Sequence record: MF093736
Reading direction: 5' to 3' (one strand)
Origin: Shigella phage vB_SsoS-ISF002
Length of the DNA: 50,564 nt
The notes beneath the pieces were generated by a model. That model ran no database searches. It saw only the letters and a list, made by a program, of their open reading frames with translations, and was not told the DNA's origin. A program made the translations under genes and the position numbers. Positions 4,495 through 47,010 of the stretch are shown piece after piece. How positions within the stretch are numbered: position 1 is the first letter of the stretch; each line of letters opens with the position of its first letter.

Positions 4495-4736
4495 GTGATT
4501 ATCTCAGAAGAAAGTTCTTCTACGTCTTTTTGGATGATTAATGGCCAATTCTCAATGTATTCATTCCTTATCTCTTCGAAAGACATATCAAGAGAACTAG
4601 TGAACTCCCACAGATCGCAACCAATAACATCCTTAGTCAATCCATTTCGCTCCATAATCTCGCAGCACGTAGCTCGATAAAGTAGCCATAAACCTTGCTC
4701 AGTTAATTTAACAGGAACCATTTTTTCGCTCATCAT
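4485..4736 (-). CDS. hypothetical protein (start at internal ATG overlapping the Dam stop, ATGA)
   Basis: RBS ggtgaggaaag before ATGATG; the start overlaps the upstream stop, suggesting translational coupling. Confidence 0.45.
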   Translation of the reverse strand: MMSEKMVPVKLTEQGLWLLYRATCCEIMERNGLTKDVIGCDLWEFTSSLDMSFEEIRNEYIENWPLIIQKDVEELSSEIITQH

Positions 4737-5446
4737 ACTTTCCTCACCTTTGCTCGTTTGTTTTTCACCGAAGGGCAAATGCTTGTGATTGGGATGTAGT
4801 GAGTCTGTTGCACCTCACCTTCTTTAAGTTCGCGCATAATAAAAATTACCGAACCTTTGTTATTACCGTCTACGGCCTTTCCAGTTTCACCGGATATGAA
4901 AGCCAGACGACCGGATCGTGCGTATTCATTGCCGTCAATATCCTCAGTCAAATCAGCTTCAATCCAGATGATTTCAGCCGCGTGCTGTCGAGCCTCAGTA
5001 AACCACGCAGTCGAGTTATCGGCAGGTAAAAGAATATCGATCTGGTTGTTGTGCTCCATTTGCTCAATCGCTTTCTTGACGAATATATCAGGTCGACTGT
5101 AAGGAGGGTTTAACCATACGTGCTTATTTTTACCCCACCAACGTTTTAAGCAGTTTGTTTCCTGGGAATAAAACTTCTCGCAAACTTTATTTTCTTCGCT
5201 TGCCGCAGCGTCGAGATCATATTTTCCGTAGCGACCCTCAAGGTATGCGATAACCTCGCGTGGGGTTGACCATAAATCACGAACTGCGTCAGGTGTATTG
5301 GTTCCCTTGTATCGACGTCCTGAAATCTCTTTGCAGGTTGGCGTTTTCAATGCTTGATAATAACCGCCTGATGCTATTGCTTCACGAGTGAATGAGCACC
5401 CAGTTTCTGCAAAGTCGATTGTTTCGATATCGTTAAAGTCTTTCAT
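4733..5446 (-). CDS. dam: DNA N6-adenine methyltransferase (phage Dam family)
   Basis: Motifs RDLWSTP and WLNPPYS. Confidence 0.8.
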   Translation of the reverse strand: MKDFNDIETIDFAETGCSFTREAIASGGYYQALKTPTCKEISGRRYKGTNTPDAVRDLWSTPREVIAYLEGRYGKYDLDAAASEENKVCEKFYSQETNCLKRWWGKNKHVWLNPPYSRPDIFVKKAIEQMEHNNQIDILLPADNSTAWFTEARQHAAEIIWIEADLTEDIDGNEYARSGRLAFISGETGKAVDGNNKGSVIFIMRELKEGEVQQTHYIPITSICPSVKNKRAKVRKV

Positions 5447-5498
5447 TTTTAATCCTCTCGTTTCGGTGAGATAATAATGCCAGATTCCATTCCGGCGG

Positions 5499-5517
5499 TT
5501 TTAACAAAAAGTGCTAT
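5499..5517 (-). promoter_or_regulatory. conserved intergenic box
   Basis: Plus strand ttttaacaaaaagtgctat; contains the VRR-NUC stop (TAG); about 55 nt upstream of the Dam start. Confidence 0.5.
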
Positions 5518-5930
5518 TTCGTTAAATCGTATATTGCCAGCTTGAATTGCTCAAATCCGTATGCAACGGCAGAGAATCCACCGCGATCCCGAACCTTTTT
5601 GAGAAACTCCCTTTGCTTATCGCTGACTGGTGACGCCTTTCCCTTGCCGGACTTATTAACCCGTTTGAGTTCGATAGCTGCGAACGGGTAACGTGAGTTT
5701 ACACCAATCAGGATAACGAAATCTGACACACCTTTAAGTAATCCAGCCTGCTCATCCCTGAGTGCTGAAGTGATTGTTTTTTCACCTTCATTTACAGTGT
5801 GCCAAAATAGAAGGTGTGGGAAGTTGTATTTCAGCCAGGAAACGCAATCTACCTGATGAGCGTCCTCCTTTCTCGTGTCGCTAGGATCTCTCTCGTAAAA
5901 TTCTAAATAATCACCTTTGTCTGTAATCAT
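5514..5930 (-). CDS. VRR-NUC domain nuclease
   Basis: PD-(D/E)XK-like arrangement (SDFVILIG ... AIELKR); directly downstream of and overlapping the helicase gene. Confidence 0.65.
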   Translation of the reverse strand: MITDKGDYLEFYERDPSDTRKEDAHQVDCVSWLKYNFPHLLFWHTVNEGEKTITSALRDEQAGLLKGVSDFVILIGVNSRYPFAAIELKRVNKSGKGKASPVSDKQREFLKKVRDRGGFSAVAYGFEQFKLAIYDLTK

Positions 5931-19548: not shown

Positions 19549-20279
19549 AATTTAAGATCCTTATGGCGAACAATTAAAACAGTATGATCCTGATACCAGC
19601 CGGAATAGATATCACGTCGCGAAAGTTTGCCAAAGGCGTGATGCAAGATCTGATTATCACCCAGGTAAATGCCTGCGTGGTTCCATACCGGAACATTTTG
19701 CCCTATCTGCATGATTACCATATCCCCGGATGATGGGTTATTCTGATCTGGAATCTCAACGAATCCATCTTGCTTGTAATAATCCTGATAGAGATTAATT
19801 CCGTACTCCGGTTTCCACCATTCAAAATTCAATCGGCGATCGCGTAACTCTACGCCGTGCTCTTTGTGCCACGCCATAACAAGACCGTAACAGTCGAATG
19901 ATCCTAATGACCACGGACGACCAATCAGAGGTAATTTCTCTGGCTTCACAAATCGCATATCCCCTTCAGGCACGCTAACAATGATCCAGGTAACTTCCAT
20001 CTCGTTGCACATGCACGTATCGTGAGCGCTTGGTAGAGTTGTAGCCCCGTCTCCTGTATGACTATGAACAATTGCGATCGTAGTTGATTCCGCATCGTCC
20101 TCAATGCAAGCGTATTGTACAGCATCCATCATGAAATGATTCTCGGGATCACGATGCACATTATCAATGCGATGGTATTTTTGCACTCGGCCCTTTTGGG
20201 TGACTACCCCGCAGCATTCGCGTGGGTATTCTTCTTGAGCGTGAGTCATAATTTCAAGTTTAATTTTTGCACTAATCAT
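19545..20279 (-). CDS. tail protein with MPN/JAMM and NlpC/P60-like domains (lambda K-like)
   Basis: JAMM-like HSHTGDGATTLPSAHD and a C-terminal Cys/His-containing domain; start at the internal ATG next to the L stop. Confidence 0.7.
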   Translation of the reverse strand: MISAKIKLEIMTHAQEEYPRECCGVVTQKGRVQKYHRIDNVHRDPENHFMMDAVQYACIEDDAESTTIAIVHSHTGDGATTLPSAHDTCMCNEMEVTWIIVSVPEGDMRFVKPEKLPLIGRPWSLGSFDCYGLVMAWHKEHGVELRDRRLNFEWWKPEYGINLYQDYYKQDGFVEIPDQNNPSSGDMVIMQIGQNVPVWNHAGIYLGDNQILHHAFGKLSRRDIYSGWYQDHTVLIVRHKDLKL

Positions 20280-37364: not shown

Positions 37365-37384
37365 GTTTTAGCAATTAGTGCTAT
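37365..37384 (-). promoter_or_regulatory. conserved intergenic box
   Basis: Plus strand gttttagcaattagtgctat. Confidence 0.5.
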
Positions 37385-37953
37385 TTGTTGATGAACGTAG
37401 CGGCTATGTGCTGAGCGGTAATTTCAGGATGACCCTCAACAGAGAAGAAATCACATTCCTGATAACCGTTAACCCCGATCATATCGTCCAGGTAGATATA
37501 ATCGCGACTGTCGTTATCGAAGTTGCAACCGTTGCGATGTATGCGGCATAGCTTGACCTGGATATCGCCTTCAATCATTTGCAAGATCTCGTCTTTGAAT
37601 CCCCCGTCAGTAAATACCGAAAGTGAGTGCGACTCTTTAACCTTACTTTCCGCTCGCATACCGAAGAATCGATTTCCGAACTGCGGCTTGATGACTTCCT
37701 CGCTAATCCAGATCATAAACTGGCGCGGGCTTTTACCGTTCAGGATTGACGCTGGCTCTTCTTTGTAACGACGGTCCTCATACAAGAACATGAAATACTC
37801 GTAGTTAGTTTCACCCAAGATTGCCCGAGCAATCTCAAACATTGGTGCTTTGAAGCTGCGGAGCGCTACGTGATCGTAAGTGTCAGCCAGGATGCATCCG
37901 ATAGTGTCTTTTCCCGCTCCAGGTGCGCCGTTTAAAATGATAGCTGTTTTCAT
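37381..37953 (-). CDS. P-loop kinase, candidate polynucleotide 5'-kinase
   Basis: Walker A GAPGAGKDT at the N-terminus; paired with a HAD phosphatase gene. Confidence 0.55.
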   Translation of the reverse strand: MKTAIILNGAPGAGKDTIGCILADTYDHVALRSFKAPMFEIARAILGETNYEYFMFLYEDRRYKEEPASILNGKSPRQFMIWISEEVIKPQFGNRFFGMRAESKVKESHSLSVFTDGGFKDEILQMIEGDIQVKLCRIHRNGCNFDNDSRDYIYLDDMIGVNGYQECDFFSVEGHPEITAQHIAATFINK

Positions 37954-38679: not shown

Positions 38680-39125
38680 TACCAGCATCTGATCTCGTAT
38701 TCAGCCCAATCGTCAAAATCACTTTGGCAGAATGTGCCACTATAATTTTCCATCATTTTATCGATCAGGAAGTAGCGCGACTCACCGTTACGATAGAAGT
38801 ATGAATCAGCAACGTTACGCGCCCAGCGCCCAGCCTCCTTCTTGCTCATCTTCCAGTGCTTCATTGCAATCTTCTTGAATGCACGCACGACGCGCTTGCG
38901 GATCTTAATGTGCTTGTACACCGCGTTGCATCCGTAGGCCATATATTCGTTATCGCCAAGATTCTGCATAATGTACGGATTTACTTCTTTTGACGTAATC
39001 ATCAGATCGCCATCGCCGCGACGAGCATCATAAATACCTGCTGTCATGTAGTGACCTTTGAACATACCAATGCCGTGCAGAGTGTACTCATCGTTAGGCG
39101 TTTCAATGCAAATTAAGTGTTTCAT
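38679..39125 (-). CDS. hypothetical protein (148 aa from RBS-supported ATG)
   Basis: RBS gaggaag before ATG; MKHLICIETPNDEY... Confidence 0.45.
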   Translation of the reverse strand: MKHLICIETPNDEYTLHGIGMFKGHYMTAGIYDARRGDGDLMITSKEVNPYIMQNLGDNEYMAYGCNAVYKHIKIRKRVVRAFKKIAMKHWKMSKKEAGRWARNVADSYFYRNGESRYFLIDKMMENYSGTFCQSDFDDWAEYEIRCW

Positions 39126-41821: not shown

Positions 41822-41841
41822 GTTTTAACAAAAAGTGCTAT
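41822..41841 (-). promoter_or_regulatory. conserved intergenic box
   Basis: Plus strand gttttaacaaaaagtgctat. Confidence 0.5.
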
Positions 41842-42029
41842 TCTTTAATTTCGAAGCAATCCGTATCTTCATCGAATACCCAGGGATCGCCATTATCATC
41901 AAGCAATGAGATGTTACCGAAGCTGGTTAGCGAAGCGTTATAAGGCTTGTCGACAGTAAAGCACTCCTTTACTTCCTCATCTTCGCTACCTTTGAATACT
42001 GCAATCATTTGGTGCATAAAATCAGCCAT
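41838..42029 (-). CDS. hypothetical protein (63 aa)
   Basis: ORF with ATG start. Confidence 0.4.
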   Translation of the reverse strand: MADFMHQMIAVFKGSEDEEVKECFTVDKPYNASLTSFGNISLLDDNGDPWVFDEDTDCFEIKE

Positions 42030-42843: not shown

Positions 42844-42862
42844 TTTTAACAATTCGTGCTAT
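42844..42862 (-). promoter_or_regulatory. conserved intergenic box
   Basis: Plus strand ttttaacaattcgtgctat. Confidence 0.5.
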
Positions 42863-43329
42863 TTAGTGAGATACTTTACGCCACTTCCGGCAACCTCATT
42901 CCAGCCATCCTCAAAGTGTACGCTATAGCAAGTTGCAGAACGCTGGCGAACCTTCGACACAGTGCGCCACACCTTACGGCCCGAGTAACCAGTCAGTACA
43001 CGCATCCCTGGCAACAACTCACCCGACTTTCTCACCTTAATGGCAACATCTGAACCAAGCTCGAACGACTCAAGGAAAACTGGGTCAATCATATCGCACA
43101 TGCGGCGAACTTCGTTCTCGTCTGCCCATTCACAGCCATCTCTTGACTTGATAACTTCAATAAAACAAACCAATTTCTCAGTTAGTGAGTTTGAAGCATA
43201 TGTGTCTATATCAATAACCGTGCAGTGACTGTACATATGCCAATGCGATCCGGTTTTATGCTCAAACGCGAAGAATGACATTTCATCATCAAGCTCATCT
43301 TTAGCCAGAAATACGGTAATGGTTGTCAT
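42859..43329 (-). CDS. hypothetical protein (156 aa)
   Basis: ORF with ATG start. Confidence 0.45.
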   Translation of the reverse strand: MTTITVFLAKDELDDEMSFFAFEHKTGSHWHMYSHCTVIDIDTYASNSLTEKLVCFIEVIKSRDGCEWADENEVRRMCDMIDPVFLESFELGSDVAIKVRKSGELLPGMRVLTGYSGRKVWRTVSKVRQRSATCYSVHFEDGWNEVAGSGVKYLTK

Positions 43330-43582: not shown

Positions 43583-43602
43583 TTTTAACAAAAAGTGCTA
43601 TT
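43583..43602 (-). promoter_or_regulatory. conserved intergenic box
   Basis: Plus strand ttttaacaaaaagtgctat; contains the TAG stop of the upstream gene. Confidence 0.5.
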
Positions 43603-44605: not shown

Positions 44606-45217
44606 GGCTTGCAGGTCGATTTTAAGTGTGGTTAATCGTGTTAATCGTGTTAATCGCTTTCCCCATATAAATATGAGCCGATAAAACTACTGTATATATA
44701 AACATGAATACAATAATCAGAGCATCCAACGATTAACATAGTAGACACGCTATACAACCATATTACAGATAATAGTATCTATATATATAAATAAAAAAAA
44801 TACTTATATATTATATATATACATATAGATATATGTATATTATAAGGCGTAATTTGGTGTAATTTTGTCTACTATTGAGATTCAGGCAAATTGTAGACAA
44901 CTGTTAACACACGGTCAAGTGTAACCGTAATCGATAGCACGTTTTGCTAAAAATGGAGATAACCACCAGGCGAACCGGGTAACACCAGATCCTCCCTCTC
45001 ACAATCATTGCATTCTAAGCAACAAATAAACCAACTGTTGCACACCGTGCAATAATCACGTTTCATCATTCGTAATCAATAACAATCAAGGTTATTACAC
45101 CTATTCCAGTATTGATGGAATAATGAGCAATTATTGGAATAGCATTTTTTGCTAACGACTCGGTCGGGTAGGTCGGGTATAGTCCGGCCCATAAACCAAT
45201 CAGAAGAGGAAGCAACA
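44606..45217. promoter_or_regulatory. AT-rich divergent control region between the two arms (candidate origin, packaging or early-promoter hub)
   Basis: 612 bp non-coding; tatatata tracts; 3 tandem GTTAATCGT 9-mers at 44631..44657; boxes at 44934 and 45138; CAACTGTT elements at 44897 and 45034. Confidence 0.5.
44631..44657. repeat. three tandem 9-bp repeats (gttaatcgt, gttaatcgt, gttaatcgc)
   Basis: Direct reading. Confidence 0.9.
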
Positions 45218-45922
45218 ATGAAATTAATCTGGTCACTATTCGACGGTTCAGGTCTTGCAGGTCATGAGCTAGCAAAGCAAGGCCATAAGGTGATGTGCTT
45301 CAACTTTGACGGAGCCGATCACGGAGATTACGCAAAGTACAACGCCAGGGTTGAGCATCATAACATTGAGTATGTGAACGTCTTTATTAATGAGAAGTTC
45401 GAACGTGATGCTATCGCGGGTGTGTATGGCAAGCCTGATTTCATCATGGCATTTCCTCCATGCACTGACCTGGCTGTTAGTGGCGCTGCTCACTTCGCAA
45501 GAAAGCGTGAGCGAGATCCGTTATTCCAGGAGAAGGCTGTTGCTACCGCCCGGATTGCTGCGAATATTGGCGACTCTCTTGGCGTGACTTACATAATTGA
45601 GAATCCGGTGAGTGTCCTGTCATCTGCCTGGAGAAAACCAAATCACTCCTTCAACCCCTGGGAGTATGGCGGCTATCTTCCTGAGAATGACGCACACCCC
45701 TGGTTCCCTATGTATATTGCGCCGCGCGATGCTTATCCGAAGAAAACTTGTCTTTGGACCTCGGACGATTTTGTCATGCCGGAGAAAAAACCTGTAAGCC
45801 TGCCTGACGGGTACTCTACGCAACACAGCAAGCTGGGCGGCAAGTCGGCAAAGACGAAGCTGATACGATCCCTGTCGCCTCGTGGATTTTTCAAAGCGAT
45901 CGCAAATAGCACTTTTTGTTAA
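45218..45922 (+). CDS. compact DNA (cytosine-5)-methyltransferase-like protein
   Basis: Motif I-like LFDGSG, catalytic PC-like FPPCTDLAVSG, ENV-like IIENPVS; start at ATG with RBS gaggaagcaaca. Confidence 0.5.
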   Translation: MKLIWSLFDGSGLAGHELAKQGHKVMCFNFDGADHGDYAKYNARVEHHNIEYVNVFINEKFERDAIAGVYGKPDFIMAFPPCTDLAVSGAAHFARKRERDPLFQEKAVATARIAANIGDSLGVTYIIENPVSVLSSAWRKPNHSFNPWEYGGYLPENDAHPWFPMYIAPRDAYPKKTCLWTSDDFVMPEKKPVSLPDGYSTQHSKLGGKSAKTKLIRSLSPRGFFKAIANSTFC

Positions 45923-45925
45923 AAC
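45906..45925 (+). promoter_or_regulatory. conserved intergenic box overlapping the 3' end of the methyltransferase gene
   Basis: atagcactttttgttaaaac; its TAA is the gene stop. Confidence 0.5.
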
Positions 45926-46183: not shown

Positions 46184-46369
46184 ATGAAAACGAAATTAGT
46201 GCATAAATCAGAAATCAAGATCGGCGATACTGTGATTCACAACGGAGAGTTAAGGACGGTTGATAAGCAGTCAATAAGCAGAGATGAATTTATGGGTCTG
46301 TTGTTGTTCGGCGACTCATATCGCCTAGGATACAAATTTGTCGAGCTTGTTGAGGATGTAAAATTCTAA
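46184..46369 (+). CDS. hypothetical protein (61 aa)
   Basis: ORF followed by a box. Confidence 0.45.
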   Translation: MKTKLVHKSEIKIGDTVIHNGELRTVDKQSISRDEFMGLLLFGDSYRLGYKFVELVEDVKF

Positions 46370-46378
46370 ATAGCACTT

Positions 46379-46398
46379 TTTGTTAAAACACGCCCGGT
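46379..46398 (+). promoter_or_regulatory. conserved intergenic box
   Basis: atagcactttttgttaaaac. Confidence 0.5.
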
Positions 46399-46825: not shown

Positions 46826-46995
46826 TCGTATATATCGTTATGGGCGGCGTTACATATGAGGGTGAATATGTAGAGACTGTTCACCTTGATGAGAAGAAGG
46901 CGAAGCAGTACGAAAACAGAATGAAGGAACAGATTCGCGCCGGAAAAAGCATGTACGACTACACGACGATTGTTGAGAAGGAAATTACCGAATAG
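46822..46995 (+). CDS. hypothetical small protein (57 aa; not in the supplied ORF track)
   Basis: MIVYIVMGGVTYEGEYVETVHLDEKKAKQYENRMKEQIRAGKSMYDYTTIVEKEITE*; RBS ggagga; its stop TAG is inside a box. Confidence 0.4.
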   Translation: MIVYIVMGGVTYEGEYVETVHLDEKKAKQYENRMKEQIRAGKSMYDYTTIVEKEITE

Positions 46996-47010
46996 CACTT
47001 TTTGCTAAAC
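46992..47010 (+). promoter_or_regulatory. conserved intergenic box
   Basis: atagcactttttgctaaac, followed by the inverted repeat gggatgac / gtcatccc around tggtatagt. Confidence 0.5.

Follow-up and report, generated by a model that had tools for sequence, protein, structure and literature searches.

What are the two DNA methyltransferases that Shigella phage vB_SsoS-ISF002 encodes, which bases do they modify and what does the phage gain from them? The DNA analysed here is the whole sequence record MF093736, a single stretch of 50,564 nucleotides that is referred to below as the window. A sequence-only reading of it had proposed two methyltransferases of different classes, a Dam-type N6-adenine enzyme and an unusually short protein with the motif order of C5-cytosine enzymes; its coordinates, 4733-5446, cover the dam gene only. 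Both open reading frames (ORFs) and all the motifs named for them (DLWSTP, NPPY, FDGSG, PPC and ENP) were found where they had been placed and in the order given, and the assignment to two classes is borne out by profile matches, motifs, fold and conservation. Both of the phage's orphan DNA methyltransferases, which differ in class, are already known. The pair is very probably best explained as a T1-type Dam and a compact phage C5-cytosine methyltransferase, each standing alone. The two chemistries, N6-methyladenine (6mA) at GATC for T1 Dam and 5-methylcytosine (5mC) for the Dcm of phage K42, are supplied by the literature on near-identical or homologous proteins.

The genome itself is of a familiar kind. 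In a BLASTN comparison phage T1 aligned to the greater part of the window's 50,564 bases, at 81-95% identity, which indicates that the window is a complete T1-like phage (Tunavirus) genome. Over about 3 kb surrounding the second gene it is 95% identical to a Tunavirus of the Drexlerviridae, Shigella phage vB_SflS-ISF001, and over 140 other T1-like matches were obtained for this stretch. The genome of ISF001 has 50,552 bp, and its equivalent gene is annotated as 'DNA methyltransferase'.

The T1-type Dam

The dam gene (4733-5446, minus strand) codes for an orphan N6-adenine DNA methyltransferase of 237 amino acids, as judged from the ORF, its profile matches and its alignment to T1. The protein matched Pfam PF05869 with an E-value of 4.8e-69 (231.8 bits, cut-off 28.1), the NCBIfam equivalog model TIGR01712 with 1.4e-71 (239.4 bits, cut-off 97.05) and the PADLOC orphan methyltransferase model with 3.2e-172 over 237 of 237 positions. 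Translation and alignment to T1 Dam placed the DLWSTP motif at residues 57-62 (5261-5278, minus strand) and the catalytic NPPY, which corresponds to the (D/N)PPY motif IV of amino-methyltransferases, at residues 113-116 (5099-5110, minus strand). Scores above the curated cut-offs and the presence of both motifs put the protein in the phage N6-adenine methyltransferase family. In Pfam only PF05869 was matched, with no match to the D12 family to which E. coli Dam belongs, and the label 'Dam' would therefore describe function and not orthology to the E. coli enzyme.

Dam of phage T1 (M.EcoT1Dam; ST20, YP_003925.1) has the same length and is identical at 235 of 237 residues. The two differences are conservative (I138M and H155N in T1) and functionally unremarkable, and the T1 gene likewise follows the helicase and VRR-NUC genes. 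By alignment the ORF 4733-5446 is thus taken to be phage T1 Dam. What this enzyme does is well described. T1 Dam makes G6mATC independently of the host Dam, T1 DNA from a dam- host stays DpnI-sensitive, and deletion of T1 dam by CRISPR leaves all GATC sites unmethylated; biochemical papers from 1987 and 1990 are cited in the same source (PMC10470545). Host Dam methylates T1 DNA only partly, and the deletion lowers burst size by about 40% when no restriction system is present, even in dam+ hosts (PMC10470545). By analogy with this near-identical protein, Dam of the window would transfer a methyl group from S-adenosylmethionine (AdoMet) to N6 of adenine in GATC, a sequence that occurs 251 times in the window and is not depleted.

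A compact cytosine methyltransferase

The second gene, here called dcm (45218-45922, plus strand), codes for an orphan compact C5-cytosine DNA methyltransferase of 234 amino acids that belongs to the phrog_757 family. ATG 45218 is the correct start, because homologues begin at the equivalent position and GAGGA lies 7 nt upstream. A 257-residue version from TTG 45149 was rejected, since the promoter-like TATAGT at 45178-45183 would then fall inside the coding sequence.

The AdoMet-binding FxGxG of motif I is F8-D-G-S-G12 (45239-45253, plus strand). It is invariant or nearly so among close homologues, and aligns, though not significantly, to motif I of DNMT2, M.HaeIII and E. coli Dcm. The catalytic cysteine of motif IV lies in P80-P81-C82 (45455-45463, plus strand), and the glutamate of motif VI, of the ENV type, in E128-N129-P130 (45599-45607, plus strand). 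Motif I, the Pro-Cys nucleophile and the ENx glutamate thus occur in the order of C5-methyltransferases, with the V of ENV replaced by P throughout the family. K175-K176 (45740-45745, plus strand) opens a strand, KKTCLW, that resembles motif VIII. Among 78 diverse homologues (30-54% identical to the query) C82, E128, P130, P147, Y173, W180 and P188 are invariant, and all are present in the window protein; F79, P80, N129, K175, T177, R217, S218, P221 and G223 are conserved in at least 90%. The invariance of C82 and E128 across the family points to strict selection on the catalytic cysteine and glutamate. The acidic position after strand 2, residue 29, is Asp in at least 90% of the 78, where a role in binding the AdoMet ribose (motif II) would be expected. 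The window protein has Asn at this position, as do all 22 close relatives from enterobacterial phages, including the enzyme of phage KarlJaspers.

Generic profiles hardly detect this protein, and these results count against its being a C5-methyltransferase. PF00145 matched residues 6-105 only, with 11.4 bits (E 0.21) against a gathering cut-off of 22. No NCBIfam or PADLOC model matched. HMMER searches of PDB sequences, run with the protein alone and with two profiles of its family, gave nothing significant, the only C5-methyltransferase matches being DNMT2 (E 0.32) and M.HaeIII (E 1.2), both non-significant and over motifs I-IV. In favour of a methyltransferase, weak PF00145 matches were obtained for 16 of 23 close homologues, the best at 2e-5, and the phrog_757 profile ('DNA methyltransferase' in PHROGs) covered residues 1-231 at E 4e-83.

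The family is large. Homologues fell into 4,926 clusters at 90% identity and at least 2,000 representatives at 50% identity, 190 of them below 1e-30. Out of 50,697 phage records searched by tBLASTn, 1,513 contain a member of the family, mainly from Escherichia, Klebsiella and Salmonella and also from Campylobacter, Vibrio and Arthrobacter; many of these records carry the annotation 'Dcm-like C5 cytosine methyltransferase'. Full-length members among the 150 best-scoring representatives are mostly of 210-260 amino acids, and the listed cluster homologues mostly of 225-250, so small size appears to be a stable property of the family and not a truncation. Longer members were scanned for fused recognition domains and a single informative fusion was found. 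In this metagenomic protein of 563 amino acids (P0257) the compact Dcm-like domain is N-terminal and is followed by a D12 N6-adenine methyltransferase at residues 303-546 (PF02086, 2.5e-48).

The predicted structure agrees with the motifs. An AlphaFold2 model built from 23 sequences had a mean pLDDT (predicted local distance difference test) of 87.1 and a predicted TM-score (pTM) of 0.86. The best PDB matches by Foldseek were the catalytic domains of DNMT3A and DNMT3B (6u8p, 4u7t, 6f57), with E 2.5e-7, probability 1.00 and a TM-score of 0.4-0.5, and the modelled protein is thus assigned the C5-methyltransferase fold. Sequence identity to these domains is 13-17%; the phage protein is shorter by about 50 residues and, unlike DNMT3A and DNMT3B, has no regulatory domains. 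DNMT3A has PCN, ENV and R-x-R at motif VIII, where the phage protein has PCT, ENP and K-K. The enzyme would accordingly be built on a catalytic core of the DNMT3/M.HhaI type, with the FxGxG AdoMet site, the cysteine nucleophile of PC and the glutamate of ENx.

The closest experimental precedent comes from another drexlervirid. Dcm of phage KarlJaspers (Bas06), which has 236 amino acids and the annotation 'Dcm-like C5 cytosine methyltransferase', shares 55% identity with the window protein (E 2e-87), with C82, E128, K175 and K176 at identical positions. KarlJaspers is a Hanrivervirus, the phage of the window a Tunavirus, and in K42 and KarlJaspers the gene is likewise an orphan among small early genes. 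The genome of K42 is 95.4% identical to that of KarlJaspers and carries a dcm of 711 bp; all four escapers of K42 from the retron Ec86 (Eco1) had lesions in dcm, and expression of Dcm was toxic only when Ec86 was present (bioRxiv 10.1101/2023.08.16.553469). From the same study we also cite the toxicity of over-expressed Dcm alone, which does not discriminate between specificities. Liquid chromatography coupled to mass spectrometry (LC-MS) found high 5mC on the multicopy single-stranded DNA (msDNA) of Ec86 with wild-type K42 Dcm and not with a C82A/E128A/K175A/K176A mutant, K175 and K176 being named as substrate-binding residues (bioRxiv 10.1101/2023.08.16.553469). Later papers treat the triggering of Ec86 by Dcm as established.

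Gene surroundings and the role of methylation

What the two genes stand next to bears on what they are for. No restriction endonuclease adjoins dam or dcm among the neighbour genes examined. The neighbours code for a VRR-NUC protein (which belongs to the conserved T1 helicase module), a DUF7421 protein, a DUF7174 protein (a weak match) and small proteins without matches, and PADLOC gave no defence matches. With no nuclease partner beside either gene, both are orphan methylases and not parts of a restriction-modification (RM) system, as the sequence-only reading had held. The dam gene lies beside the helicase and VRR-NUC genes, while dcm is the first gene after a divergent intergenic region.

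This gene-poor region (44606-45137, roughly 600 bp) separates divergent early gene blocks. It contains GTTAATCGT three times in tandem (44626-44653) and, at about 44760-44840, a tract very rich in A and T in which TATATA abounds, with an inverted repeat (44764-44790 and 44811-44837). It may be an origin, a pac site or a regulatory region.

Each methyltransferase gene lies behind its own copy of a repeated promoter-like module. The module begins with a box of 19 nt, AATAGCAC-N3-TTGYTAAA, of which the window has 30 copies at no more than three mismatches against 1.16 expected; examples are found at 724-742, 45138-45156, 45905-45923, 46369-46387 and 46991-47009 on the plus strand and at 5500-5518, 37367-37385, 41824-41842, 42845-42863 and 43584-43602 on the minus strand. 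About 21 intergenic copies were examined. The box is on the strand that codes for the adjacent genes and is followed 20-22 nt downstream by a TATAGT/TATAAT-like hexamer, often preceded by TGn, a distance too great for a sigma-70 -35/-10 pair. After this -10-like hexamer come a conserved leader CATCGAAACGA, a ribosome-binding site (RBS) and ATG. Between box and leader there is a hairpin whose arms are specific to each copy and yet complementary, and which in most copies encloses the hexamer. The fold z-score was below -1.5 in 17 of 21 copies, with a mean of -3.4. Comparison of the hairpins of the window and T1 gave 4 double compensatory against 14 pair-breaking changes, a count based on few substitutions, some of them from paralogous matches.

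Before dam (5474-5518, minus strand) the module consists of the box AATAGCACTTTTTGTTAAA (5518-5500), a hairpin CCGGA..TCTGG and a -10-like CATTAT (5479-5474), with ATG 27 nt later; in the record of T1 the corresponding hairpin (T1 38973-39001) is marked as a terminator. Before dcm (45138-45212, plus strand) it consists of the box AATAGCATTTTTTGCTAAC (45138-45156), TATAGT (45178-45183) and the RBS AAGAGGAAG (45204-45212). The 3' end of dcm is embedded in a further box, an early observation that held up: AATAGCACTTTTTGTTAAA at 45905-45923 (plus strand) provides the five codons before the stop (N-S-T-F-C) and the stop itself (TAA, 45920-45922). This box belongs to the module that serves the next gene (ATG 45983). 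The modules look like combined terminator/promoter elements between early genes.

In contrast to dam, dcm is not shared with T1. The deposited T1 genome is without the whole segment 45053-46989, 1.9 kb that include dcm and three or four small ORFs, and the sequences that flank the segment correspond exactly to T1 positions 2 and 48753, at either end of that record. In terms of the T1 genome, dcm therefore belongs to a variable stretch at the termini. It is an accessory gene. Two phages have frameshifted orthologues, IME18 near codon 190-204 (NC_047959.1, 15895-16598) and ADB-2 at codon 120 (NC_019725.1, 2450-3153). IME18 was isolated on BL21(DE3), which is the natural host of retron Ec86 (bioRxiv 10.1101/2023.08.16.553469). 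The frameshifts could reflect counter-selection by the retron or sequencing error.

It had been supposed that two orphan methyltransferases would give the phage broad protection against restriction. The evidence does not support this. Each enzyme covers one short motif, T1 does without dcm, and Dcm would carry the liability of triggering Ec86. In the BASEL study most Drexlerviridae were very RM-sensitive, and no pattern linked their variable methyltransferase sets to resistance. The absence of dcm from T1 and the broken copies in IME18 and ADB-2, together with the BASEL result, leave an anti-restriction role weakly supported. A narrower role is proposed here. The two enzymes would protect from restriction enzymes that read GATC and CCWGG, Dam may additionally contribute to burst size, and Dcm would come at the cost of being able to trigger retron Ec86, as its homologue does.

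It is possible, though rather unlikely, that the main role of one or both methylases lies in the phage's own DNA transactions (replication, packaging, avoidance of repair or gene timing) and not in anti-restriction. The smaller burst of the T1 dam deletion without restriction means that the role of Dam is not purely anti-restriction, and the partial methylation of T1 by host Dam points the same way, as do the lack of any relation between the methyltransferases that Drexlerviridae carry and their RM resistance and the location of each gene within the phage's own gene blocks behind its own promoter-like module. Against such a role, dcm is dispensable: besides T1 and the two frameshifted phages, K42 escapers with dcm deleted still grow. 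In addition, classical work (Wagner et al. 1979) is cited as crediting T1 methylation with an escape from restriction by the host.

Target of the compact enzyme

Which site does the compact enzyme read? The label 'Dcm-like' presumes that it shares chemistry and target, 5mC in CCWGG, with E. coli Dcm and M.EcoRII (472 amino acids). No similarity to E. coli Dcm was detectable (best BLASTP E 8.2; hhalign probability 0.2-0.3%, over motif I or IV only), and the label is therefore functional and does not denote an orthologue. Compared with E. coli Dcm the phage protein is half the size and has neither the large target-recognition domain (TRD) nor an adjacent vsr gene. A truncated host-type Dcm was rejected, the two proteins showing no relationship by hhalign and BLASTP.

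Three lines of evidence argue for CCWGG. Mutation of CC in the CCTGG of msDNA abolished Ec86 defence (bioRxiv 10.1101/2023.08.16.553469). Pantoea phage AAS23, whose gp52 is a family member 50% identical to the window protein, has DNA reported as Dam- and Dcm-methylated by digests (PMC8004638). DNA of Klebsiella phage KP36 is completely resistant to EcoRII at 155 sites, and its authors found no cytosine methylase gene in the phage and credited the host (PMC3620542). Here KP36_073 (KP36 19553-20245, minus strand), annotated 'hypothetical protein', was identified as a member of the compact Dcm family, 41% identical and with FPSC instead of FPPC. AAS23 and KP36 both carry a T1-type Dam as well. 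Standard domain models miss the compact Dcm family, and KP36 is an example of its having been overlooked before.

Other evidence weakens the case for CCWGG. The window protein is only 55% identical to KarlJaspers Dcm, which stands in for the K42 enzyme that was tested. The Ec86 study adopted CCWGG by analogy (bioRxiv 10.1101/2023.08.16.553469). The KP36 digests are confounded by the host species having its own Dcm (PMC3620542), and the dcm status of the AAS23 host is unreported (PMC8004638). Literature searches found no base-resolution methylome for any family member. The E. coli strain MG1655 is dcm+. Without expression of the phage enzyme its msDNA had little 5mC (bioRxiv 10.1101/2023.08.16.553469), which is in small tension with an identical specificity of the two enzymes.

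Site counts do not help in this matter. The window has 89 CCWGG sites, which are not depleted and occur at the same frequency as in T1 without dcm. GATC and CCWGG frequencies are alike in T1 and in phages with dcm, and composition therefore says nothing about specificity. A side observation concerns CCSGG. KarlJaspers (MZ501090.1, 1-50000) has 2 such sites in 50 kb (observed/expected 0.17), with CCWGG at expectation (125 sites), whereas CCSGG is not depleted in the window (72 sites) or in T1 (65 sites). This suggests selection in the KarlJaspers lineage against a restriction enzyme that reads CCSGG or CCNGG.

The size of the protein was a further point of the sequence-only reading, according to which there is little room for a TRD and this is unusual. 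The first part stands, and the second does not, as a short protein is the norm for its family. Canonical C5-methyltransferases have motif VIII, QxRxR, and motifs IX/X (GN) on either side of a TRD of roughly 50 to more than 100 residues. The window protein is far shorter than these. In its model the motif VIII-like strand covers residues 177-181 (T177-W180, preceded by K175-K176), and the conserved C-terminal helices KTKxIRSLxPRGF follow after residue 210. Predicted secondary structure and pLDDT leave residues 182-210 (45761-45847, plus strand), about 29 amino acids, as the sole segment in the position of a TRD. It forms one short helix, includes one of three stretches in which the model is of low confidence (pLDDT 63-73, residues 201-220), and has P188 and LGGKS conserved in it or nearby. 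It is also among the most divergent parts of the alignment with KarlJaspers Dcm (DGYSTQH in the window, DKDNPGW in KarlJaspers). The span of about 29 residues from K175-K176-T, at the motif VIII position, to KTKxIRSLTPRGF depends on a presumed equivalence with DNMT3A motifs. In this comparison KKTCLWTGNGF is similar to RARYFWGNLPG, from the motif VIII region of DNMT3A, and IRSLTPRGF to GRSWSVPV of DNMT3A; both resemblances are leads. From the model we infer that residues 182-210 are a mini-TRD, so that the usual TRD would be reduced to about 30 residues. The conserved segment 146-176 (P147, Y173, K175), which is specific to the family, could be a DNA contact.

So small a recognition segment gives some ground to the view that the compact enzyme is an active DNA C5-methyltransferase whose target is not CCWGG, or not only CCWGG, and may be a shorter or degenerate motif or a cytosine other than the one that the host Dcm modifies. 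The lack of similarity to E. coli Dcm extends to its recognition domain, and DNMT3A and DNMT3B, the closest neighbours of the enzyme in structure, recognise no more than a dinucleotide. The assumed, unmapped target of the Ec86 work and the low 5mC of MG1655 msDNA add to this. Nevertheless we hold a different target to be unlikely, as the CCTGG mutation abolished defence and the DNA of two phages with homologues behaved as Dcm-methylated or EcoRII-resistant. Doubtful in like measure is a proposal for the lineage as a whole, that it reads DNA unlike the solved C5-methyltransferases, by a mini-TRD of 30 residues together with the loop 146-176 or as a DNMT3-like dimer, in which case the target may differ from CCWGG or be broader. 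CCWGG is the most likely target by analogy, and the compact enzyme would produce 5mC most probably at these sites, as its characterised homologues suggest.

That the compact protein is no DNA methyltransferase at all, but an RNA C5-methyltransferase (like Dnmt2, on tRNA), an enzyme of other group transfer (e.g. carboxymethyl) or an inactive remnant, is very improbable, for although DNMT2 was the sole C5-methyltransferase with E below 1 in the PDB sequence search and PF00145 stayed below threshold, 5mC was found in DNA with the K42 homologue and not with the active-site mutant, the invariant Cys and Glu speak against a remnant, a fusion of the domain with a DNA adenine methylase exists, and the best structural matches are DNA enzymes.

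The locus itself has little discovery value, as near-identical published genomes already have annotations for the two genes, and a counterpart of each has been studied by experiment. For work with the phage the consequences are practical. In its DNA one should reckon with 6mA at GATC and probably with 5mC at CCWGG, which affects cloning, restriction mapping and nanopore basecalling, and by analogy with K42 its Dcm would predict sensitivity to hosts that carry retron Ec86, such as BL21(DE3).

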